Shown: positions 2 to 16,579 of the stretch, in pieces
Layout: each line of letters begins with the position of its first letter
Numbering within the stretch: the stretch's first letter is position 1
DNA from: an uncultured Oscillospiraceae bacterium
GTDB lineage: Bacteria; Bacillota; Clostridia; Acetivibrionales; DTU013
Reading direction: 5' to 3'
Assembly: GCA_964587755.1 (NCBI GenBank)
Contig: CAZPMC010000005.1
Coordinates: 2,486 to 66,485 of the forward strand
Length of the DNA stretch: 64,000 nt
Position numbers and translations under genes: made by a program
The notes under the pieces: model-generated
Seen by the model: the letters and a program-made list of their open reading frames with translations, nothing else
Told to the model about the DNA's origin: nothing
The model's database searches: none

Positions 2-2101
2 TTAGGTGGATGCGGTTGGCTGTTATGGGGCTGGACCTATAACAGAATGCTCTTAGCTACGTTCTTTGGTACAATGTGGTTTTTCCTGCCTGATAACATT
101 AGAGTTTTCTTTGTGGAAGGGAACTTCCCGCGAATGGTTATTGCAATTTTTCTGCCCTATTTATTTTACTTTATATGGAGATTTGTTGACCATCAAAAAA
201 AATGGGCGCTTTTTCCGGTAATTTTCATAATGTGCTGTATAATCATGTCCCATGTTATGATTGCTGCCATGACAGGCATAGCTTCATTCCTTTTTTTGCT
301 CATATACTGTATAATTCAAAGACAATGGCAAAGGTCAGTTCAGGTGATAATAGCTATGCTCATTTCATTTGCTCTGTGCGGGGCTTGGCTATATCCTGCT
401 CTTCAGGGGGGGCTTGTTGCCATGGATGCAGGAGCAACTGCTGAGGTTATGCAATCATTAAGTACTCCCATATCAATATCTTTAAATCCATTGGTGCGCA
501 CTAAGGGGATATTTGACTATTATTATTTTGGATTAGCCATCATGGTAGTTTGTATTCTTGGACTTATTCTGGCCAATAAAAAAAGTCTGCCTGGTTTTAT
601 TACGGCTATAATCATTTTTCTGGGAACAACCACAATTGCCGTTCCTCTGCTTGAAATGCTACCCTTAAATCAGTTACTTTGGATGATGCGTTTTACGCCA
701 ATTGTGTATGCTCTGTTTATTCTCTCGGCCTTTGAATGGTCAAATTGCAGGCGCTATGTAGTGATTATTTTTGCAATGTTTCTTATTTTTGACAGCATAC
801 CTTCTGCCCAGTTGGAAAGGTATTTTTCTCAAAACCCTACTAAATTGTTTGATTCTCTATCAACTGCTAAGGAAATCACTAATCAAAGAGTTTCGCTGCT
901 GGATCTTAGTGTATTTGATTCTTACCCCTCGTATTATTTTCCAGGTGAAGAACCAAAAACCCAATATACTTTTGGCTGGGCCTGGCAGGGTTCTACAACA
1001 GCCCAAAATATTGTAATGCTCAATACGGCAGCTGAGAAAGGTTATTACTACTATCTTTTCGACCGCAGTTTGGAACTGGGTGATGATACGGTTATGTTGC
1101 AAAAGGAACTGATGAAAAAGGCTAAAAAATCTCTGCCTCAGCTGCTTAAAGCGGCTCATGCATCAGGCTACCAGCTTTATAAAGAAACAAATTATACTTA
1201 TATTTTTCACAGGGATACGCCTGAACGCTTTGGTGTTGCTACAGAATATGAGGGGCTTGCCATTGGGAGCTCTGCTAATGGTATAGCTTTGAAATATCCA
1301 TCCTTTGCAGAAGGAACCTCTGATAATTTGACTGATTACAGCTTTGAAGAGTTAAGCAAGCACAAGGTGATTTACCTGTCCGATTTCAGATATGATGATA
1401 AAAAGGCTGCCGAAGAACTGCTGACCCGCACGGCTAAAGCAGGCGTAAAAATTGTTATCGATATGAGCCGAATACCTGTCGATCCAGTAACCAGCCGTAT
1501 GACCTTTTTCGGAGTGACGGCTCAGCCCATTAGCTTCTCAAACCGGTATCCGGAGCTGATGTACCGCGACCGGATTTATGAAGCGCTGCCCTTTAAGGAG
1601 AAATATTCCACATGGAATACCATTTATCTTGACAATGTTAAGGAGATTATTGGCTTCTCCTGGTTTAATAATAAAGAATTGCCGTTCCTGGGGACGGCAG
1701 TTAATCCAAATATTTTGTTTATGGGTTACAACATCTTGTTTCATGCTTTGGAAACCGGAGATGAGGCAATAATAGAGATGATAAATGATTTCCTGGGGGT
1801 TTTCCCAACCCGGCTTCCAAAACGCGAGGTAGTGCCCATTACCGTTGAGATGCAGAAAAACCGATTAGTCATTGATACTTCAGGCGGAGAAATTAATACA
1901 ACTATTGCTTATCAAGATAATTTCCGGAGCAATCAAAAGATATTAAACAAAAACAATCTTTTGATAGTACAAGAACCACATACTCAGATAGAAATCACCT
2001 ATGCTTACTTGATTCCCGGTCTGATATTGAGCGGGACAGGTTTACTTGCAGAAGGCATTTTACTATATTTTATCAACAGGAAGAAGAGGTGCGCACTATG
2101 A
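2..2101 (+). CDS. Large polytopic membrane protein, GT-C-like (the family annotated as 6-pyruvoyl-tetrahydropterin-synthase-related in XrtG loci); 5' end lies outside the window
   Basis: The frame is open from nt 2 with no upstream stop, so the M at 47 is not necessarily the start. The first ~270 aa contain many hydrophobic helices. The soluble C-terminal half aligns by eye with the 874-aa ORF at 5484 (LAIGSSANGIALKYPSF...KHKVIYLSDF...AGVKIVID versus LILGIGAPGVAMEFPYL...KYKLIYLCEP...NGVKVVIE). It ends in SGTG + TM + NRKKR. Confidence 0.6.
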   Translation, partial: LGGCGWLLWGWTYNRMLLATFFGTMWFFLPDNIRVFFVEGNFPRMVIAIFLPYLFYFIWRFVDHQKKWALFPVIFIMCCIIMSHVMIAAMTGIASFLFLLIYCIIQRQWQRSVQVIIAMLISFALCGAWLYPALQGGLVAMDAGATAEVMQSLSTPISISLNPLVRTKGIFDYYYFGLAIMVVCILGLILANKKSLPGFITAIIIFLGTTTIAVPLLEMLPLNQLLWMMRFTPIVYALFILSAFEWSNCRRYVVIIFAMFLIFDSIPSAQLERYFSQNPTKLFDSLSTAKEITNQRVSLLDLSVFDSYPSYYFPGEEPKTQYTFGWAWQGSTTAQNIVMLNTAAEKGYYYYLFDRSLELGDDTVMLQKELMKKAKKSLPQLLKAAHASGYQLYKETNYTYIFHRDTPERFGVATEYEGLAIGSSANGIALKYPSFAEGTSDNLTDYSFEELSKHKVIYLSDFRYDDKKAAEELLTRTAKAGVKIVIDMSRIPVDPVTSRMTFFGVTAQPISFSNRYPELMYRDRIYEALPFKEKYSTWNTIYLDNVKEIIGFSWFNNKELPFLGTAVNPNILFMGYNILFHALETGDEAIIEMINDFLGVFPTRLPKREVVPITVEMQKNRLVIDTSGGEINTTIAYQDNFRSNQKILNKNNLLIVQEPHTQIEITYAYLIPGLILSGTGLLAEGILLYFINRKKRCAL

Positions 2102-2724
2102 AAAAAACATTCCCGGCTTTTCTTACATTGATATTGCTTTTACTGTTAGTCCCGTTGCATGGCTATGCCGATTATGGTGCTATTGAGATTGATGGTTATT
2201 ATGATGATTGGGAGGACAAGCCTCATACACAGGTTTACTATGATCAGTCGAATATTCACCGGGTTTCTGTATTCCGGGATGAGAGCACGGTGTATGTTCA
2301 CATTAAAATGTCCGAAAATGGATTTCGCCATATGGATAATTATTATTTTGAAATGGGTACTAACCAGGGTACAAAAGCCTTCACTCTTGAACTGGAACCT
2401 ATAAAGGAAAAAATGTCTGGAACAGCAGGAATAAAAGTACACAACACCAGCAACTGGCAGAATGTGATTGGTTCGGGATATTACACACGGGAAGAGGGAG
2501 AGTCAGATGAAGCGGAGTTTAACATCCTGCTTTCATCAATTACAGATGACCCTCAAGGGATATATGATATTTCAATAATGTGCTCGAACCTGGGACCTCA
2601 AATAATTATATGTGTCGGTGCCGGCACAGGACCATATATGGGAATTGCCATTGGTGCCGCCATCGTTCTAATCTCGCTTGCTTATTTTTACTACAGGAAA
2701 AGGCGCCCGGTCATTAACCAATAA
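2098..2724 (+). CDS. Secreted protein with a Firmicu-CTERM-like C-terminal sorting tail (putative XrtG substrate)
   Basis: The ATG at 2098 overlaps the upstream stop (ATGA), with RBS AAGAGGTG 6 nt upstream. Signal peptide MKKTFPAFLTLILLLLLVPLHGYA. N-terminal IDGYYDDWEDKPH motif. C-terminus is VGAGTGPY + 20-aa TM + YYRKRRP. Confidence 0.6.
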   Translation: MKKTFPAFLTLILLLLLVPLHGYADYGAIEIDGYYDDWEDKPHTQVYYDQSNIHRVSVFRDESTVYVHIKMSENGFRHMDNYYFEMGTNQGTKAFTLELEPIKEKMSGTAGIKVHNTSNWQNVIGSGYYTREEGESDEAEFNILLSSITDDPQGIYDISIMCSNLGPQIIICVGAGTGPYMGIAIGAAIVLISLAYFYYRKRRPVINQ

Positions 2725-2748: not shown

Positions 2749-3336
2749 ATGCTGACTTTGCAAATAATTGGGTTTATAGTTTGGCTTTATGCCATATGGG
2801 TTCTCAGCCGTACAGAGATTCATTTTTTCAAGTTCTGTCTGGGCAGTGTCGGGCTTTTTTTCTTTTTGATGCTCTGGGTTCAACCTCTAATCACCCGGCC
2901 GTTAACTATGGCAGTTACTGCTGCGGCAGGAGTGCTGGGGGATGTAAGCGAAATGTACGACTCGTTTTATCAATACTCAATATTATTTATACCCAAGGGT
3001 ACAGCCGCGGTGTCCCTTACCATAGATTATGAATGCTCCGGAGTAATTGAGATTATGGCTTTTAGCTGTATGCTGTGGTTCTTTCCACTGTATAATACCA
3101 TCGAAAAGCTGATTATCACCTGCATAGGATTGGTAATGATTTTTGTGGCTAATGTCCTACGAATTTTTGTAATTTGCACTCTGATTTACTTTTTTGGTAA
3201 TGAGATATTTTATTTCGCCCATACTATTTTCGGCCGAATAATATTTTACTTTATTTCGATTGCTCTCTATTTCTATGTATTTACACGGCCACATATAATC
3301 CGGCAGAAGGTAGGTAAATTTAGTTATGAAAATTGA
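2749..3336 (+). CDS. xrtG: Exosortase family protein, XrtG-type
   Basis: A 195-aa all-TM protein with the exosortase/archaeosortase Cys-Arg-His signature in the expected order: IDYECSGVIEI, ANVLRIF, FAHTIFGR. Its context (tail-bearing protein upstream, GT2 downstream) matches the described XrtG neighbourhood. Confidence 0.75.
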   Translation: MLTLQIIGFIVWLYAIWVLSRTEIHFFKFCLGSVGLFFFLMLWVQPLITRPLTMAVTAAAGVLGDVSEMYDSFYQYSILFIPKGTAAVSLTIDYECSGVIEIMAFSCMLWFFPLYNTIEKLIITCIGLVMIFVANVLRIFVICTLIYFFGNEIFYFAHTIFGRIIFYFISIALYFYVFTRPHIIRQKVGKFSYEN

Positions 3337-4699
3337 GATTTTGTTAAGTAGAATAACAAGAGAGGTTATTTTCTGGATGGCATGGGTAATCATTCCTTTG
3401 ATAATGGAGATTATCCCGGCATTCGGCGGATTTGTTATCCTGCTTAAAAAGAGATTTAGACGCCAACGCAAAATTGATCTCTATATGCTTCCTGAAATTA
3501 CGCTGATTATTCCTATTTATAATTCGGCACGAACCTTATGGGATTGTCTGGTCTCAGTCTATAATTCGAGCTATCCCAATCATTTAACTAGCATCCTGCT
3601 GGTCAATAACGGCAGTACTGACAATAGCTATGAGGTTTATCTTAAGTTTCAGTATGAGTATAAGGACCTGCCCCTTAGCTGGTTAGATGCCGACCAGGGG
3701 AAATCCAAGGCTCTGAACATGGCGCTTTTTAACAGTCACGGCAAATATATTATCCATATTGATAGTGATGGCAGGCTTCATCGGGATGCCATAAGAAATA
3801 TGGTAATACGTTTTGAACAGGAGCCTCACATTGATTGTCTCACAGGTGTAATATTGACAGATATGAAGGCCATTGAAGAGACTAAGAGCTCTATGATGAA
3901 AATGGTCCGCCGCTGTGAATTCTTTGAATACTGTCAGTCCTTTTTGGCAGGAAGAAATTTTGAGTCAGAATTAGACAGTGTATATACATTATCCGGGGCA
4001 TTTTCAGCTTTTCGCAGATCTGTTATTCTCAAATCCCAGCTTTATAATACAGCTACCATAAGTGAGGATACCCAGATAACTTTCCAAATCCGTCAGCTTC
4101 AGAAGAAAAATATTCGTCTGTGCGAAAATGCATTCTTCTTTGTCGCGCCTATTGAGAGCTACAATAAGCTATACACCCAGCGCCAACGATGGCAAAGGGG
4201 GGAGATAGAAGTGTCTCATATGTTTTTACGAAATAAGCTGTTTATTTTAAAAGGTTTTACCAGCAATTTCATGGTGCGCACCCTGTTTTTTGACCATACC
4301 TTTGCATTCCCGCGCATGATTTGGTATTTTGCCCTTATTTATCTGACTTTTTTAAACTACCCGGTTTCTTTGGTACTAGGTTCTATAGTCATAATATATC
4401 TACTTTATGCCTTTTCTATGTTCCTGTTTTATATAAATGTGCTTATGTACTTGGACAAGGTTAAGGATATTAAGAGGTATTACCGCTCAAAATGGTATCT
4501 GCCATTCATAATGCCGGCGTTTAATTTTGTGATTTTCTGGATCCGTTTTGCAGGCATTATTAACAGTATTAAAGGAACAGGAAGCTGGAAAACAACAACT
4601 CTGACAGAGGAATGGAAAAAGATAAAGACTGCTGTCAATGATGACTTTCACCTCCCAAAAAGGATAGTCAGAGTGTTGAGAAGGAAGGTGAACTTATGA
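3326..4699 (+). CDS. Membrane-embedded processive family-2 glycosyltransferase (XrtG-associated type; PgaC/IcaA/NodC-like)
   Basis: N-terminal TM, GT-A core (LIIPIYNS, HIDSDG, SEDT), a QRQRWQRGE sequence matching the Q(R/Q)xRW processivity motif, and four or more C-terminal TM helices. The start overlaps the xrtG end by 11 nt. Confidence 0.75.
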   Translation: MKIEILLSRITREVIFWMAWVIIPLIMEIIPAFGGFVILLKKRFRRQRKIDLYMLPEITLIIPIYNSARTLWDCLVSVYNSSYPNHLTSILLVNNGSTDNSYEVYLKFQYEYKDLPLSWLDADQGKSKALNMALFNSHGKYIIHIDSDGRLHRDAIRNMVIRFEQEPHIDCLTGVILTDMKAIEETKSSMMKMVRRCEFFEYCQSFLAGRNFESELDSVYTLSGAFSAFRRSVILKSQLYNTATISEDTQITFQIRQLQKKNIRLCENAFFFVAPIESYNKLYTQRQRWQRGEIEVSHMFLRNKLFILKGFTSNFMVRTLFFDHTFAFPRMIWYFALIYLTFLNYPVSLVLGSIVIIYLLYAFSMFLFYINVLMYLDKVKDIKRYYRSKWYLPFIMPAFNFVIFWIRFAGIINSIKGTGSWKTTTLTEEWKKIKTAVNDDFHLPKRIVRVLRRKVNL

Positions 4700-5487
4700 A
4701 TACACTGACGGTGGTATTACCTGCTTATAATGAAGAGCAGGATATTAAAGCTTTGGTAAGCCGGTGGCAGCAATTCAGGCTGGAGCTTAAAGACAGATAT
4801 GGATTAGAATTGGAGATTGTTGCAGTTAATGACGGAAGCAAGGATAAAACAAGAGAAATTGCAGAAGGTCTGGAGAGAGAATATACGAACTTCACCCTTA
4901 TCAATCATCCTTATAATAAGGGGTTAGGAGAAGCTGTAAAGACCGGGATTAGCCATTTCCTCCAGAACTGTCCCCAAAGTCAATATATGTGTCTTATGGA
5001 TTGTGATAACACCCATGATCCGTGCTATATAACGGATATGCTGAACTGCTCAAGAGAGGATAGAGCCGATGTGGTTATTGCTTCCCGATACTGGACCAGT
5101 GCTAAGGTTGAAGGTTTATCAAGGCTTCGGCTGCTGATGAGCCAGGGAGCAAGATATATTTTTAAATTGCTTCTTAATGTTCCCGGGGTCAGGGATTATA
5201 CTTGTGGCTACCGAGTTTACAGGCGGGAAATTATACAAAGAGCTTTCCATAGATTTGGTGACGGACTGGTTTCTGAGAGCGGCTTTACCTGTATGGCGGA
5301 GCTTTTGTATAAACTCTACACCTGCGGAGCTGTCTTTGGTGAGATTCCCTTTGTGCTGCGATATGATTTTAAAAAGGGGGCAAGTAAAATGGCAGTCTTA
5401 AAAACTGCCGCCAACAGTATCCGCCTGGCATTTAAGCTAAAGAAAATCAAGATACTTAAAGGGACAGCCTCAGGAGTAAAAATATGA
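4696..5487 (+). CDS. Soluble GT2, polyprenyl-phosphate glycosyltransferase (Dpm1/GtrB/ArnC-like)
   Basis: VVLPAYNEEQDI, VNDGSKDKT and MDCDNTHDP (DxD) motifs in a 263-aa protein with no TM. ATGA overlaps at both ends. Confidence 0.7.
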   Translation: MNTLTVVLPAYNEEQDIKALVSRWQQFRLELKDRYGLELEIVAVNDGSKDKTREIAEGLEREYTNFTLINHPYNKGLGEAVKTGISHFLQNCPQSQYMCLMDCDNTHDPCYITDMLNCSREDRADVVIASRYWTSAKVEGLSRLRLLMSQGARYIFKLLLNVPGVRDYTCGYRVYRREIIQRAFHRFGDGLVSESGFTCMAELLYKLYTCGAVFGEIPFVLRYDFKKGASKMAVLKTAANSIRLAFKLKKIKILKGTASGVKI

Positions 5488-8108
5488 AAATTAAAAACAT
5501 AGAGGGTAAGTCATGCCAATTTTATATAGAATTATCCTTTGCTCTGATAATAACAGGCATCGCTTGCGCTGCCGGTTTTTCGAATTTATTGGGCATTTCA
5601 AACGATATTTATCCTTACACATCAGATGCTATGGGCCATATGGCAAAGGTCAGATATTTGGCGGATTGCTTATCAAACGGCGACTTTCCTTCTTGGTTTC
5701 CTTATTGGTATAACGGGGCTACATTTACACAGTATTATCCCCCGCTTTCTTACTGGATTATGACTTTGATTTATATTCCTGTTCAGAATGTGATGTTGAC
5801 CTTTAAAATTTACTGTTATGCAATGTTTTTTATTGGCGGCATGGGAGTATGGTACTTTTGCAGGTTTTTCATCGGTAAATGGTGCGGGATTTTCGGTGCA
5901 GTGGTTTTTTGTCTCCAACCATATATTTTGAGAGCATTATTATCAGCGGGTACTGTAGCGCAAGGACCTGTAATTGCCTTGTCCTCATGGTATTTGTTAT
6001 TACTTCTCTCATATGTGTATAAGCCAAATGCTAAAAAATTCTTACTATGTGTATTAATCTGTGCTTTTATAATATTAGGTCACCCCAATACCGCTTTTAT
6101 GATGTGCCTATGCATCATGGCAGTTTTCTTTGCACTCCTTGTGATAAAGAGGATTACATTTTTAAATTTCATAAGTGCTTCTCTCACAATAGTATTAGCT
6201 GGAATCATAACCGCATTTTGGTCAGTATCCGGTGTTCTGGGATTGGAAACACCTGGAGTACCAACTCTTCTTGTTGAGGCAGCCTTAAATTATACTGCCA
6301 ATATAAATTGGTTTATAACATCATCAGGGACCTTTTTCTACTTTGCTATTCCTGTCACAATAGGAAGCTTGATTTCCTTGTTTGTCTATGCATACAGAGC
6401 ATCAAGAAAGACTGCGGAAAGGTGGGAAAAGGATTATATTCTGTTTTGCATCCTAATAACGCTTTTCACTATAGTATTTTCTTTTGGGATGAATTTACCG
6501 TTATTTGAATATTTACCATTGGCAGAGAGCTATGTACCGGGGCGTATATTGGTATTGACTTCAGTATCAGGAGCTATTTTATGTGCGTATATGGTTTATA
6601 TGATTCAAAGATCAACCAGAGGTAGAAGGATGAGTACAAAAGTCGGATATTACATTATTTCTGTAGCGATCATCGCAGCAGCTTTGTATTATATGAATCC
6701 GTTTGCCACAAATTATAGTTCAATTACTTCTAATGATTTTGATGAAATGGTTTCAAAAGTAAATGTCGAAGGCAGTAGTTTTGAGAAGGGGCGTTATGCA
6801 TATCTAAGTGTAGTCGATTCCAGTGAGACTTTTTTTTCTATAACTTATGACTTGAATTTAACTGATGGCTGGAATATTGAAGGCACTCCTCATAATCGAG
6901 CAATTTGGAATCATAATATTGCCTACCAAACTGGTTGTTTTTCTTATATTGCTAAAAATCTAGCTTTTTGGAACACAAGATATTTTCTTTTTGATGAGAA
7001 ATACCAAAAGATAGCGGAAGAATTAAATAAAGAATACTCTTTTCAATATATCAGCGACAGGGGTCTTGGTAAATTCTATGTCAGTAAAGAGCCGTCATCA
7101 TATTTCCTTACTGACAAGCGCAATGGGCTGATTTTAGGCATTGGAGCACCGGGAGTAGCAATGGAGTTTCCTTACCTTGTCCATGAGCAGCGTGAGGATA
7201 TATCAGATTATTCACGGTCGGAACTTTTGAAATACAAGCTCATCTATTTATGTGAGCCGGAGGTTGACACCCTGCGGCAGAAAAAAAACATTGAAGAAAC
7301 AGTTGAGTATTTGGTGAATAACGGGGTAAAGGTTGTGATAGAGCCGACGGTCACAAAAGGACACAAGTTATTCGGTGTAGGGGTCTCAGATGTGCTTTTT
7401 GAAGATTCACCGGTACTAAAGAAGCAGTCAATATCCCAAATAGAGAGCTCCGTTGATAAAATTGAGTTAAATGATAAGCCTATCTATGCCCGGGTGTTGT
7501 TTGGCCTTGATAAGGCATATTACAAATTGGAGCAAAACGTTGGACAGCTTCAAAATGATGTGATTGGCACAAAGAAGGTTGGAGACGGAGAAGTGCTTTT
7601 TCTCGGCTTGCATCTAAGCCAGTACCTGAAAGCGGTGTATGCTCGGAACTGGGGTATCCCTGAAGATGAAAAAGGATATCCGAATTGCTCTAATGAGGTT
7701 AAAACTTTGATAGGAGACATATTTAAAACCTTTGGAGTGGAGCAAAATTTCTGGCCGGATCCATTCCCTGTCCAAAGTGCTAAATGGGATTACAAAGGTG
7801 TGGATTTCGATTATTCGGTCAAAGAGGCCAGGGAGATCACCTTAAGTGTTACATATACACCTTGTTGGCAGGCAACTCTTGACGGGCAGTCGATAAATGT
7901 CGGACAGCGTGAGAACCTTGTAACGCTGAATCTTCCTGCCGGAGAGCATCATGTCAGGTTGATGTGGACTGACAAATATGGTATCATAGGATACATAATT
8001 ACTTTAGCTGGTTTGACATTTTTCGCCTTATTGCTCATAAAATTTGACAAACATATTAATTATTTAAAAAAAATAGGGGCTCTTATTAAGAAGAGCTTGC
8101 ATTTTTAG
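5484..8108 (+). CDS. Large polytopic membrane protein, GT-C-like, paralog of the ORF at 2..2101
   Basis: About 12 TM helices. The first-loop motif YPYTSDAMGHMAKVRYL...WFPYWYNGATFTQYYPPLSYW is typical of COG5617-type membrane proteins. The C-terminal soluble domain resembles that of the first ORF. The final TM is followed by a basic tail. Confidence 0.6.
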   Translation: MKIKNIEGKSCQFYIELSFALIITGIACAAGFSNLLGISNDIYPYTSDAMGHMAKVRYLADCLSNGDFPSWFPYWYNGATFTQYYPPLSYWIMTLIYIPVQNVMLTFKIYCYAMFFIGGMGVWYFCRFFIGKWCGIFGAVVFCLQPYILRALLSAGTVAQGPVIALSSWYLLLLLSYVYKPNAKKFLLCVLICAFIILGHPNTAFMMCLCIMAVFFALLVIKRITFLNFISASLTIVLAGIITAFWSVSGVLGLETPGVPTLLVEAALNYTANINWFITSSGTFFYFAIPVTIGSLISLFVYAYRASRKTAERWEKDYILFCILITLFTIVFSFGMNLPLFEYLPLAESYVPGRILVLTSVSGAILCAYMVYMIQRSTRGRRMSTKVGYYIISVAIIAAALYYMNPFATNYSSITSNDFDEMVSKVNVEGSSFEKGRYAYLSVVDSSETFFSITYDLNLTDGWNIEGTPHNRAIWNHNIAYQTGCFSYIAKNLAFWNTRYFLFDEKYQKIAEELNKEYSFQYISDRGLGKFYVSKEPSSYFLTDKRNGLILGIGAPGVAMEFPYLVHEQREDISDYSRSELLKYKLIYLCEPEVDTLRQKKNIEETVEYLVNNGVKVVIEPTVTKGHKLFGVGVSDVLFEDSPVLKKQSISQIESSVDKIELNDKPIYARVLFGLDKAYYKLEQNVGQLQNDVIGTKKVGDGEVLFLGLHLSQYLKAVYARNWGIPEDEKGYPNCSNEVKTLIGDIFKTFGVEQNFWPDPFPVQSAKWDYKGVDFDYSVKEAREITLSVTYTPCWQATLDGQSINVGQRENLVTLNLPAGEHHVRLMWTDKYGIIGYIITLAGLTFFALLLIKFDKHINYLKKIGALIKKSLHF

Positions 8109-8137: not shown

Positions 8138-9925
8138 ATGCTGAAAAAAAGTAAAATAAATTACAAAGTAAAGCTTTTTGGTATCTCTTTATTGGCCATA
8201 TCTTTTATTTTGCTTATTTGGGGGTATATACTTCAAGAAACGAATAATTATAAATATAGCGCCATTCAAAGCTTTAGCCGCAATCAGGAAATTTTAGTTG
8301 ACCAGGTTTCAAAAAGTGTCAAGGAAAGGCTTGCGACTCTTACCGGGGAGGGTTATTCCATTGAACAGGCTGAAGCTGATGTTGTCACTAACATAATAAG
8401 TAGAGCCGAAGCATCGGGAAGCAAATATTGGTTTTTGTATTCAACAAGGGAAGTAGTATTCGAAAAAAACCATGAAGAGACTAGAAATCTCAAAGGTAAA
8501 AGCACTTCGGATCTGGTGCGGTATTGGAAGCTTAAGGGTGGTACTGCTATTGATGAGTTTGAGATGTTACTTGCAAAGCAGCAAAGCGGCTCTTCTGTTT
8601 TTATAAAAAATGCTGATTATGGGGAAGAGATTGTTTCAGTAAGTTATTTTATGGTCGATGAAACCGGCTACTTTCTTGGAATGTCAACAAAAAAGCAGTA
8701 TGTTTGGTCTGTTGGCAGAATCAGCGAGCATATTCTCTATCTATATATTTTTGCCGGTGCTGTCAGCCTGGCTATACTGATACTGACTCTGTTGGTGTGC
8801 ATAGCCTATCTAAAGGGTCATAAGGATAATGAAAAGAGCAGCAAAGACATAGCTGACAAAAATCTTTATATTGAAGAGCTTACTAATAAGCTTCAATTGA
8901 AAACAGAGACAGCGAATAATGCCAGTATCTGTGATGTTCTGACCAAGCTTTATAATCAGAGGTTCTTTTATACCATGCTATCCAAAATAAATATTGGTTA
9001 TTTTCAGCCGATTTGCATAGTTGTTGTGGATATAAACGGGTTGGACGGTCTAAACCAGACCGCCGGTTACAGGGCGGGAGACGACCTTTTGATAAATACA
9101 GCAAGAATATTACAGCGGCTGTGTCTTGATACTGATGTAGTGGCAAGAACGGGCAACAGCGAATTTAGTATTTTGATGGTATCAACTGATGAATCTCAAG
9201 CTTATGGAATAACCGACAACATCAGACGCCAATTCGCCGACCTTGATTATACCGACTTAACCTTATCTATTGGAGTTGCCCAAATGAATATTGAGGATAG
9301 CGATATCTACAGCGTTCTGGAGCGGGCTCGTAAAAATTCGGACCTGGAAAAATTGAATGACCCTAATAGCAGCAGTTATAATGTGGTTGCTATGCTGATG
9401 AAAATGCTAAATGCTTATTCTCCTGAAGCAGTTGCCCATTGTAACCGTATAAAGAAAAAGGCAGTTGAGCTTGGAAAGGCCCTCGGGTTGTCCAACCTGG
9501 AGCTTATGCGCCTGTCAATAGCAGCTCAACTCCATGATGTAGGAAAAATCGGCATTTCCGATACGATTTTAAATAAAAAAGAAATGCTTACTATAAGTGA
9601 AAAAAACTTAATACGTAAGCACCCGCAAATCGGCTATGAAATTGTGAAACTGATTCCGTCTTTGGATGAGGTTGCCATTGATATTCTGCAGCATCACGAA
9701 TATTATAATGGCACTGGTTATCCTTCAGGCCTTGGGGGTGAGGATATTACTCTAAATGCCAGAATTATAAATATAATCGACAGCTACGATGCAATGACAA
9801 ACAGCAGGGTATATTCCAGGGTGAAAACACCGGAGGAAGCCATAAAGGAGCTTCGTGACAAAAGTAATATTCAGTACGATCCTGATATTGTAAACACTTT
9901 TATAGAAGCAGTAGAAATTATTTGA
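8138..9925 (+). CDS. Membrane sensor protein with a degenerate GGDEF domain and an HD-GYP c-di-GMP phosphodiesterase domain
   Basis: Two TM helices flank a ~170-aa extracytoplasmic region. The GGDEF-fold region has GNSEF in place of GG(D/E)EF and no RxxD I-site. The HD-GYP domain is intact (QLHDVGKIG, HHEYYNGTGYP). RBS GGAGG. Confidence 0.8.
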   Translation: MLKKSKINYKVKLFGISLLAISFILLIWGYILQETNNYKYSAIQSFSRNQEILVDQVSKSVKERLATLTGEGYSIEQAEADVVTNIISRAEASGSKYWFLYSTREVVFEKNHEETRNLKGKSTSDLVRYWKLKGGTAIDEFEMLLAKQQSGSSVFIKNADYGEEIVSVSYFMVDETGYFLGMSTKKQYVWSVGRISEHILYLYIFAGAVSLAILILTLLVCIAYLKGHKDNEKSSKDIADKNLYIEELTNKLQLKTETANNASICDVLTKLYNQRFFYTMLSKINIGYFQPICIVVVDINGLDGLNQTAGYRAGDDLLINTARILQRLCLDTDVVARTGNSEFSILMVSTDESQAYGITDNIRRQFADLDYTDLTLSIGVAQMNIEDSDIYSVLERARKNSDLEKLNDPNSSSYNVVAMLMKMLNAYSPEAVAHCNRIKKKAVELGKALGLSNLELMRLSIAAQLHDVGKIGISDTILNKKEMLTISEKNLIRKHPQIGYEIVKLIPSLDEVAIDILQHHEYYNGTGYPSGLGGEDITLNARIINIIDSYDAMTNSRVYSRVKTPEEAIKELRDKSNIQYDPDIVNTFIEAVEII

Positions 9926-9961: not shown

Positions 9962-10486
9962 GTGCAATACGATCAATTCCGGTTTAAGTTTTATTTTAAT
10001 GCCAGTCATGCCATATATCTTAGGGGACGATTAGGCGAGAAACATCCCCACACCTGGGAGCTTATTTTGCATACGGCAAAGATAAGTGACAATTTCGTAC
10101 CTTTTAATGAGATTGAGAAGATGATTGAGGATTTCCTTTCCCAATATCAAGACGTATTCATAAATACAATCCAGCCGTTTACAACAATAAACCCTACTCT
10201 GGAGAATATTTGTACTTTTTTTAAGGGTAAGATTCAGCAGATGCTTTATGACAAAGGGTGGCTGCTGCTTTCTATAGAGCTGAGTGAGACACCTACCAGA
10301 GCCTATGTAATCAGTATGGCTGATGAGGCTCAGTTAAATAAACAGTATAACAGAGAAAATAATAGAGAAATTGACGAAATAAAAATGCAGGATATTATCG
10401 ACCAGTTGGCTGCTGCGAAATTGGATCTGTTGCTCACAAACCTGGAGGTGGCTGCTACCAGAGAATCCGATGAGAAAGAAGAATGA
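9962..10486 (+). CDS. 6-pyruvoyl-tetrahydropterin synthase / QueD-like fold protein with an acidic helical C-terminal extension
   Basis: GTG start with AAGGAG 9 nt upstream. FNASHAIYL and KHPHTWEL resemble the PTPS/QueD F-x-A-x-H and H-x-H-x-(Y/W) zinc-site motifs. The last ~60 aa are charged and helical. Confidence 0.5.
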   Translation: MQYDQFRFKFYFNASHAIYLRGRLGEKHPHTWELILHTAKISDNFVPFNEIEKMIEDFLSQYQDVFINTIQPFTTINPTLENICTFFKGKIQQMLYDKGWLLLSIELSETPTRAYVISMADEAQLNKQYNRENNREIDEIKMQDIIDQLAAAKLDLLLTNLEVAATRESDEKEE

Positions 10487-15202: not shown

Positions 15203-15325
15203 TCAAAAACCGTAAAAATGTTTACGCTTTATTACCCAGCTGCCTTACACCCATTGATATAGGCGTTAACATAATATATTATTTTGCATAAATTGATTAT
15301 GAACAAATTTTCTAGGAGAATCAAT

Positions 15326-16579
15326 ATGAACCAAAATAGTAATTATGTTAACAAATTAAGCCGTTTAATGCCTTTGGCAGCAGGGATTCTGATCCAAATG
15401 TGCTGTGGTACAGCTTATATCTGGGGAATATTTCAAGCATTTCTCATTATTACTCCGAACACACCAAATGCACTATTCAACTGGTCACCGACCTATGGAA
15501 CAGTGGCCTATGCGTTGCTTTTAAGCATGCTAACAGTCGGCAGCATTATAGGCGGAAAAACACAGCAATCAGGAAAGGTTCAGCCGGGCGCTGTTATAAT
15601 AGTTGCAGGTTTAATAATGGGAGGAGGCTTTTTACTCGTACAGTTTACCACCGAATTAACTCCCTGGCTTCTTTGGTTGTCCTATGGCATATTAGGTGGA
15701 ATTGGTATGGGAATGGTTTATACTACTACAATAGCTGTTTGCCAGAAATGGTTCCCGGATCACAGAGGACTGGTGACAGGAGTAATTGTTTCAGCACTTG
15801 GAGCGGGAACGGTCATCTTCTCGAAAATTTCCGAATCGGTTATCCCAAATATAGGTGTATTACAGACCTTTGCCTTGCTAGGGGCAGTTTTTATAGTAGT
15901 ATGCTTCCTATGTTCCTTTTTCGTAAAAAATCCACCTGAGAATTTTAAGCCTGCAGGATGGAATCCACCAGCTCCTAAGGATGGAGTTATTCACCAGCAC
16001 TTTATGCCGGGTGAGGCTTTAAGAACACCTCAGCTTTATCTTGTAGGCTTAGGTCTTATGTTTGCCACCTTTGCAGGTTCAATGGTCATTCCTATGGCAA
16101 AGGTATTCGGACTTTCCAACGGATTATCCGAATCAGCGGCTGCAATGGGTGTTTTAGTTGTTGGCGGGTGCAACTCTTTAGGAAGACTTGTTTGGGGATT
16201 TATATCAGATAAGTTTGGCAGAAGAAACACTCTTATTCTTCTCTTAGTAATGACAGCAGCTTCTATACTAGCACTGTCAGTAGTTCCAAGCACAGCAATA
16301 CTTATTGTGTTTTCACTGGTCGGGTTCTCTTACGGCGGCTTTCTTGGGGTATTCCCGGCTCTCACGGCAGACTTTTTCGGAACCAGGTATGTTGCCACCA
16401 TATACGGAATGGTACTGCTTGGATTTGGAGCAGGTGCTGTTGTGTCGGCCTTCATCGTTGGTGAGCTCAGTAAGATAAAGGCCTTTTCAACAGCATTTAC
16501 AATCGCGGCAATTGCAGCAGGCGTTGCATTCATTATAGTTTTATTGATGAAAGCACCAAAAGAGAAAAGAACAGCTTAA
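15326..16579 (+). CDS. MFS transporter, oxalate/formate antiporter (OFA)-like family
   Basis: About 12 TM helices. The N-terminal motif CCGTAYIWGIFQ is typical of OFA/OxlT-like MFS proteins. Start set at the ATG at 15326 (RBS AGGAGA 6 nt upstream) rather than the track start at 15284. Promoter TTGATA-17-TATTAT lies upstream. Confidence 0.75.
   Translation: MNQNSNYVNKLSRLMPLAAGILIQMCCGTAYIWGIFQAFLIITPNTPNALFNWSPTYGTVAYALLLSMLTVGSIIGGKTQQSGKVQPGAVIIVAGLIMGGGFLLVQFTTELTPWLLWLSYGILGGIGMGMVYTTTIAVCQKWFPDHRGLVTGVIVSALGAGTVIFSKISESVIPNIGVLQTFALLGAVFIVVCFLCSFFVKNPPENFKPAGWNPPAPKDGVIHQHFMPGEALRTPQLYLVGLGLMFATFAGSMVIPMAKVFGLSNGLSESAAAMGVLVVGGCNSLGRLVWGFISDKFGRRNTLILLLVMTAASILALSVVPSTAILIVFSLVGFSYGGFLGVFPALTADFFGTRYVATIYGMVLLGFGAGAVVSAFIVGELSKIKAFSTAFTIAAIAAGVAFIIVLLMKAPKEKRTA

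Follow-up and report, generated by a model that had tools for sequence, protein, structure and literature searches.

A probable dedicated XrtG/Firmicu-CTERM sorting system beside a GT-C glycosyltransferase in an uncultured Oscillospiraceae bacterium

Introduction

The catalogued XrtG system combines a Firmicu-CTERM protein (TIGR04145) and the exosortase family protein XrtG (TIGR03110) with neighbours of the TIGR03111 and TIGR03112 families, and an XrtG locus of the same composition has been reported in L. plantarum (PMC12854382). A 64-kb stretch of DNA from an uncultured Oscillospiraceae bacterium (contig CAZPMC010000005.1; the whole stretch is called the window below) carries such a locus, in which the gene for a 208-amino-acid (aa) secreted protein lies between the genes for XrtG and for a large membrane protein. 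The original prediction for this DNA was that both proteins end in the same exosortase-type tail, made of G-T-G, one hydrophobic helix, an aromatic pair, and RK(K/R)R a few residues from the stop, and that XrtG may process both. The locus shares the usual order of the catalogued system (Firmicu-CTERM, XrtG, glycosyltransferase) and is likewise one-to-one, with enzyme and target encoded in consecutive genes. Nothing essential is different; in this clade, a large PTPS-fused PF10131 GT-C gene directly precedes the target gene, with an overlap of 4 nt.

Two related systems, PGF-CTERM/ArtA and PEP-CTERM/exosortase A, have in common with this locus a tripartite signal and an association with glycan loci, and their polytopic Cys/Arg/His enzymes belong to the superfamily of XrtG. 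They differ in that the signal here is G-x-x-T-x-P and not P-G-F or P-E-P, that there is one target per enzyme and not many, that the hosts are Gram-positive, and that the action of XrtG is argued by analogy. Sec-exported Gram-positive surface proteins of the LPXTG/sortase A type follow the same logic of a C-terminal motif, helix, and basic tail, but the enzyme fold and the motif are unrelated, and sortase has many substrates per genome.

For the large membrane protein, the closest parallel is found in GT-C glycosyltransferases that have a C-terminal transmembrane region behind the extracytoplasmic domain, for example mycobacterial AftD, its best Foldseek match (E 2e-7, ~12% sequence identity). 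AftD has an N-terminal GT-C transmembrane (TM) bundle, a large periplasmic domain, and C-terminal TM helices, with both termini in the cytoplasm (10.1101/2019.12.22.885152). This layout is a precedent for a last helix that belongs to the structure of the enzyme itself. The two proteins differ in that AftD ends in five helices and carries carbohydrate-binding modules, and the large protein ends in a single helix and starts with a cytoplasmic PTPS-like domain.

Results

Pairing of XrtG with one Firmicu-CTERM protein

The locus is very probably a standard, dedicated XrtG/Firmicu-CTERM system inside a glycan-assembly operon. All four marker families (TIGR04145, TIGR03110, TIGR03111, and TIGR03112) score above their curated cutoffs in the window (Table 1; coordinates throughout are those of the 64-kb window unless another locus is named, and every gene discussed is on the + strand). 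The comparison set comprised 81 XrtG loci of ~20 kb each, namely the window and, from reference genomes, the 80 best of 421 matching loci, and the open reading frames (ORFs) of these loci were searched with profiles built from database homologues. Each of the loci (81/81) has exactly one Firmicu-CTERM protein, encoded immediately ahead of XrtG on its strand; the median gap between the two genes is -4 nt.

The claim of a small secreted protein with an exosortase-type signal beside XrtG is thus borne out, and it describes a pairing that is already known, being encoded in NCBIfam and used in the literature. A search of the whole genome for further tails of this kind had also been proposed. The profile scan covered the 64-kb window and the ~20-kb loci and found no second Firmicu-CTERM tail of at least 15 bits in any of them.

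Two loci from metagenome-assembled genomes (MAGs) encode the Firmicu-CTERM protein fused in frame to XrtG (L073, 437..1753; L079, 9275..10564). In these proteins, a segment reading ...GT(S/P)TGPVV passes straight into the first helix of XrtG, which replaces the substrate helix and the K/R cluster. The two fusion proteins are 77% identical, and there is no N in their DNA. The L079 form is one of 8 clustered sequences, drawn from NCBI, JGI, and Logan, and a length of 429 aa recurs in six of them. These natural substrate-enzyme fusions support the pairing of XrtG with the Firmicu-CTERM protein. Three residues of XrtG, C96, R138, and H158, are invariant across 27 sequences, and the triad proposed for exosortases consists of Cys, Arg, and His (10.1101/2023.06.07.544157).

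The small protein and its sorting signal

The small protein is a member of TIGR04145, with residues 29-202 covering profile positions 1-190 of 191, and has a 100% database match (P0001). Its N-terminus, MKKTFPAFLTLILLLLLVPLHGYA followed directly by DYG, contains a predicted signal peptide with a helix at residues 4-17 in the AF2 model. A24 and D25 are nearly invariant in the family alignment, and 76/81 family ORFs have an uncharged run of at least 10 residues near the N-terminus.

At the other end, the ORF closes with ...CVGAGTGPYMGIAIGAAIVLISLAYFYYRKRRPVINQ, in which RKRR (200-203) is followed by 5 further residues. The conserved family tail reads ...(P)NLGxQ...G-x-x-[T/S]-x-P-[Y/F/W], followed by a helix and 3 to 5 K/R. 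In 52 diverse members, T or S fills position 177 without exception (100%), P179 is kept in 88%, and G174 in 87%, while the glycines that flank T177 and complete the G-T-G of the window protein are G in only 13% and 60% of the family alignment. Counts over 76 non-redundant tails give the same picture: [TS]-x-P occurs in 69, G[TS]x[TS]x[PA] in 46, and G-[ST]-G in only 12, and at least three K/R within 8 residues past the helix are present in all 76. It is G-x-x-[T/S]-x-P, and not G-T-G, that marks the family.

The small protein was modelled with AF2 from a 25-sequence alignment. Its G-T-G (176-178) falls in a low-confidence linker of this model, with a predicted local distance difference test (pLDDT) score <50 for residues 175-179. 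This coil sits between the last beta-strand and a predicted helix (178-201) that starts at the last residue of the triplet, and the triplet stands 21 residues before RKRR. Together, these features agree with those published for dedicated tripartite sorting signals (10.1101/2023.06.07.544157), and by analogy the small secreted protein is the presumptive substrate of XrtG.

The mature domain (residues 25-173; window 2170-2616) is a predicted beta-sandwich that opens with a nearly invariant I-D-G-x-[YF]-D-D-W-x-D-K-P. A Foldseek search of the model against the PDB gave no match at E 0.001; the best hint, a weak one, was the CBM9 structure 7nwn (probability 0.87, E 0.04). The modelled fold is possibly a CBM9/DOMON-like beta-sandwich, and a role in carbohydrate binding is possible on the same grounds. 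Firmicu-CTERM proteins range from ~200 to 490 aa, the long forms including P0018-P0023 and those of loci L003, L005-L009, L012-L015, and others. They owe their extra length to an insert of acidic, Pro/Thr-rich tandem repeats that interrupts the conserved domain midway; in P0018, this insert consists of PADEQTAPKTDETA repeated about nine times.

The large protein as a predicted GT-C enzyme

The large ORF of the window is a 100% match to P0028, a full-length protein of 1000 aa whose N-terminal PTPS domain lies outside the window; residue numbers below are those of P0028. Its AF2 model has a mean pLDDT of 84.9 and matches AftD, PglB, DPY19, STT3, and ArnT in Foldseek (E 2e-7 to 1e-4), and the matches of its N-terminal domain are PTPS/QueD structures. 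The GT-C clan CL0111 includes PF10131 (PMC7801869). Judged by profile match and predicted fold, the large protein is a PF10131 GT-C glycosyltransferase, in keeping with the "GT-C-like" label first given to it. A literature search for PF10131 found no functional study of the family.

P0028 has no signal peptide. A PTPS-fold domain and a disordered linker precede TM1, after which comes a multi-helix GT-C bundle, and D231, G234, and H235, just past TM1, are invariant, so that the first outer loop has the conserved acidic residue looked for in a GT-C enzyme. In GT-C enzymes, the catalytic loop after TM1 sits on the outer face of the membrane. By homology with these enzymes, the C-terminal domain is extracytoplasmic and the last helix runs from outside to inside, because the PTPS domain is cytoplasmic, D231/G234/H235 lie past TM1, and the C-terminal domain matches PglB and AftD. 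The extracytoplasmic placement assumed in the original prediction is thereby upheld. Such a topology suits an ordinary anchor as much as an XrtG signal and does not tell the two apart.

A large PF10131 gene was found in 72/81 XrtG loci. In other clades, it lies downstream and is without the PTPS domain, and in 30 loci the GT-C gene is several kb (about 3-5) downstream and not adjacent. One locus from a complete-chromosome MAG (L039:5381-8570; OY782829.1) has a split large GT-C gene, in which an 892-aa ORF stops early and is parted from the Firmicu-CTERM gene by a further short ORF (8184..8570); a frameshift, a pseudogene, or an assembly error could be behind this arrangement.

Comparison of the two tails

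The large ORF ends in ...YLIPGLILSGTGLLAEGILLYFINRKKRCAL. Both window tails do contain, to the letter, a G-T-G, a hydrophobic stretch, aromatics, and RK(K/R)R, as had been described, but they are not equivalent. In the large protein, the G-T-G (979-981) is inside the predicted helix 971-993 (AF2/DSSP, pLDDT ~94), only 12 residues ahead of the RKKR that begins at R994. This spacing is too short for a membrane span, so the triplet cannot be a pre-membrane motif.

Conservation separates the tails further. Across 98 orthologues of the large protein, the glycine at 979 is kept in 11%, the threonine at 980 in 6%, and the glycine at 981 in 98%, and the only one of the 98 with an aligned G-[ST]-G is the window protein itself. 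The family signature G[TS]x[TS]x[PA] is in none of 67 large-protein tails (0/67). Similarity of the tails in orthologues of the large protein, which had been set as a test, is therefore not found for the signature element. From this pattern of conservation, the G-T-G of the large tail appears to be a lineage-specific accident inside a helix.

The scores lead to the same point. A tail profile was built from 75 Firmicu-CTERM tails without the window copy, and 45-residue tails were scored against it. Real Firmicu-CTERM tails reach 58.7±8.5 bits and the Firmicu-CTERM tail of the window 61.9 bits, while large-protein tails reach 3.6±2.7 bits, compared with 2.2±3.0 for segment-shuffled large-protein tails. 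The large tail of the window scores 6.0 bits, within the range of its own segment shuffles (-1.1 to 7.6). As an internal negative control, the tail of an unrelated MFS transporter in the window (15275..16579, ending in ...AFSTAFTIAAIAAGVAFIIVLLMKAPKEKRTA) scores 12.8 bits, above the GT-C tail. The large ORF tail has no NCBIfam match at E 0.01 or better. In hhalign, the large tail of the window scores 15.7 (P 0.0057), compared with 7.7-16.4 for 17 unrelated C-terminal anchors, and only the second half of its helix and the basic part are aligned. A shared P-Y-[IL] (T-G-P-Y-I in the small-protein family, Y-P-Y-L in the large-protein family) was also considered and rejected, given the 3.6 vs 2.2 bits of the profile comparison and the A that replaces P in the window copy.

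What the two tails share is typical of any out-to-in terminal helix under the positive-inside rule. At least three K/R in the next 8 residues follow the helix in 17/41 unrelated C-terminally anchored ORFs, so a helix with a basic cluster is generic. In the window copy, RKKR is followed by 3 residues. At least three K/R past the helix occur in 84% of 67 large-protein orthologues; the cluster is essentially absent in some (L080, L050, L077, and L061), and several others extend 20 to 35 residues past the helix (L047, P0052, and P0129). The second PF10131 paralogue (5484..8108) also has one terminal TM helix, followed by ~25 non-basic residues, and the tails of its family run 17-30 residues past the helix, with none of 11 having at least three K/R in the first 8 (11/11 without).

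These observations bear on the proposal that both tails are XrtG signals and that the C-terminal extracytoplasmic domain of the GT-C protein is a target of XrtG, for cleavage and re-anchoring, as well as the small protein. The literal likeness of the two window tails speaks for it, as do a compatible topology, adjacent and overlapping genes, and the presence of a large PF10131 gene in most XrtG loci. Against these stand the near absence of an aligned G-[ST]-G and the complete absence of the family signature among orthologues, the position of the triplet in mid-helix close to the basic cluster, a score no better than shuffles and below that of the MFS tail, and the orthologues that have no basic cluster or a long tail. 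The GT-C protein is moreover polytopic and without a signal peptide, and because it is polytopic, removing its last helix could not release or sort it. We regard the GT-C protein as an extremely unlikely second substrate of XrtG.

A conserved helix of its own in the large protein

The large-protein tail has a distinct pattern, in which Y-P-Y-L-x-x-G leads into a helix with small residues lined up along one face. Over the 98 orthologues, Y968, P969, Y970, and G974 are conserved (100% at G974), S978 is kept in 86%, and G981 in 98%; G984, L988, and I992 are also conserved and form the helical stripe together with G974, S978, and G981. P969 is nearly invariant, with A as an exception in the window copy and in its closest relatives. 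A Glu also occurs in the middle of the last TM helix of the window copy (E985; window 2051-2053), 4 residues past G981. It is found in 11/67 GT-C orthologues (L016, L021, L029, L031, L032-like clade) and not in the closest relatives of the window protein.

Such a tail could be a distinct, non-homologous docking helix or second signal that forms a complex with XrtG and/or with the substrate helix, with or without cleavage. Large tails score 50.9±9.3 bits on their own profile compared with 4.1 for shuffles, Y968, P969, G974, and G981 are invariant or nearly so, and the small-residue face is typical of tight helix-helix packing; the mid-helix Glu, the coupling of the genes, and the constant co-occurrence with XrtG loci point the same way. 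However, packing of the helix on the protein's own TM bundle would account for a conserved face just as well, in line with the pLDDT of ~94, the window copy and its closest relatives carry A at position 969, and the GT-C gene is kilobases away from its putative partners in the 30 loci with the distant downstream arrangement. We consider a docking helix or second signal of this kind very unlikely, and the more specific claim that the tail is a second, distinct XrtG-interacting element, docked on or cleaved by XrtG, slightly less likely still. If true, a docking or cleaved GT-C tail would physically couple glycosylation and sorting of the Firmicu-CTERM protein.

The reading of the locus as a dedicated one-substrate system, with the GT-C tail as an ordinary anchor, is favoured over these alternatives, and several points weigh against it. 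Profile-profile hhalign of the two tail families scores 24.2 with a probability of 62%, compared with 11.4 for the paralogue, in an alignment that covers the helix and basic part alone at 8% identity. Its E-value of 7.7e-5 was rejected as a sign of homology, given that only the helix and the K-rich part align and that unrelated anchors score comparably as single sequences. The large tail has a tripartite look of its own (Y-P-Y-L-x-x-G, helix, and K/R in most orthologues). Packing of the last GT-C helix in the TM bundle is what pLDDT and the conservation stripe suggest for the model. The GT-C gene appears to be translationally coupled to the substrate gene through the shared ATGA, and some functional contact of its product with XrtG is conceivable. 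The loci compared with the window are the closest 80 of 421 and so represent the nearer XrtG systems. Finally, the literature search yielded no experiment on XrtG or on any Firmicu-CTERM protein, for which reason XrtG cleavage is taken by analogy.

Gene content of the locus

The genes that surround the pair are listed in Table 1. The GT-C stop codon (TGA) and the start of the small ORF overlap in ATGA at 2098-2101. A 4-nt overlap is also the commonest spacing across loci, at both the GT-C/Firmicu-CTERM and the Firmicu-CTERM/XrtG junctions, and since it recurs at both, it suggests translational coupling.

Table 1. Features of the XrtG locus in the window
Feature	Coordinates	Strand	Evidence
C-terminal 699 aa of the 1000-aa GT-C membrane protein	2..2101	+	PF10131 606.7 bits; frame 2, open to window start
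C-terminal TM anchor of GT-C protein (residues 971-993) and RKKR (994-997)	2009..2089	+	DSSP helix, pLDDT ~94
Non-conserved G-T-G, mid-helix in GT-C anchor	2033..2041	+	Column conservation
208-aa Firmicu-CTERM protein (from ATG)	2098..2724	+	TIGR04145.2 106.8 bits, cutoff 50
Predicted signal peptide of small protein, residues 1-24	2098..2169	+	
Firmicu-CTERM sorting signal of small protein	2617..2706	+	Family alignment conservation
Signature G174-A-G-T177-G-P179-Y180 of small protein	2617..2637	+	
TM helix 181-199 of small protein	2638..2694	+	
Basic cluster RKRR 200-203 of small protein	2695..2706	+	
Exosortase family protein XrtG	2749..3336	+	TIGR03110 198.1 bits, cutoff 102.75; TIGR04178 57 bits, cutoff 23
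XrtG-associated family-2 glycosyltransferase	3326..4699	+	TIGR03111 666.2 bits, cutoff 363.95
Small family-2 glycosyltransferase	4696..5487	+	PF00535 94.9 bits
Second PF10131 GT-C paralogue, 874 aa	5484..8108	+	PF10131 254.3 bits
Membrane GGDEF + HD-GYP protein	8138..9925	+	PF00990 72.3 bits; PF13487 120.1 bits
Stand-alone PTPS-related domain protein of XrtG loci	9962..10486	+	TIGR03112 146.3 bits, cutoff 69.35

The XrtG-associated glycosyltransferase has a distant likeness to PgaC/IcaA, scoring 127 bits on the PgaC_IcaA model, far under its cutoff of 422. The small family-2 glycosyltransferase (GT2) matches PpgS, AglJ, and ArnC-type models weakly, below the cutoff of each, and resembles polyprenyl-phosphate sugar synthases in this respect; it is likely the donor-making partner of the GT-C enzymes. 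The second PF10131 paralogue is kept in at least 11 related loci. By its domain content, the GGDEF and HD-GYP protein is assigned to cyclic di-GMP (c-di-GMP) turnover or signalling.

Discussion

The proposed course of events follows the analogy with ArtA acting on PGF-CTERM proteins and with XrtA/PEP-CTERM. The small protein would be exported via Sec by its N-terminal signal peptide and would stay in the membrane through its C-terminal helix, RKRR lying in the cytoplasm. XrtG, the polytopic Cys/Arg/His enzyme, would recognise G-x-x-T-x-P on the outer face, cleave near T-x-P and so remove the helix, and probably transfer the small protein to another anchor. The neighbouring GT2 and GT-C enzymes would build or attach a glycan. 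In the GT-C protein, the last helix would be a permanent structural anchor that closes the extracytoplasmic domain, with the PTPS-like domain in the cytoplasm and RKKR following the positive-inside rule. The results themselves establish the family memberships, the order of the genes, the conservation of the tails, the lack of profile similarity between them, and the predicted folds; we infer from comparison with related systems that the small protein is exported and that XrtG cleaves and transfers it, and likewise that the GT-C protein keeps its anchor for good.

An enzyme that serves as an exosortase substrate would be a new kind of target for this protease family, and the evidence does not support it here. 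What the analysis adds to the catalogued system is the signature G-x-x-[T/S]-x-P in place of G-T-G, and the natural fusions of substrate and enzyme. The gene content of the locus also points to a link between the sorted protein and a surface glycan pathway related to c-di-GMP, because the locus holds a GT2 with a distant likeness to PgaC, a small GT2, two GT-C proteins, PTPS-like domains, and a GGDEF/HD-GYP protein.

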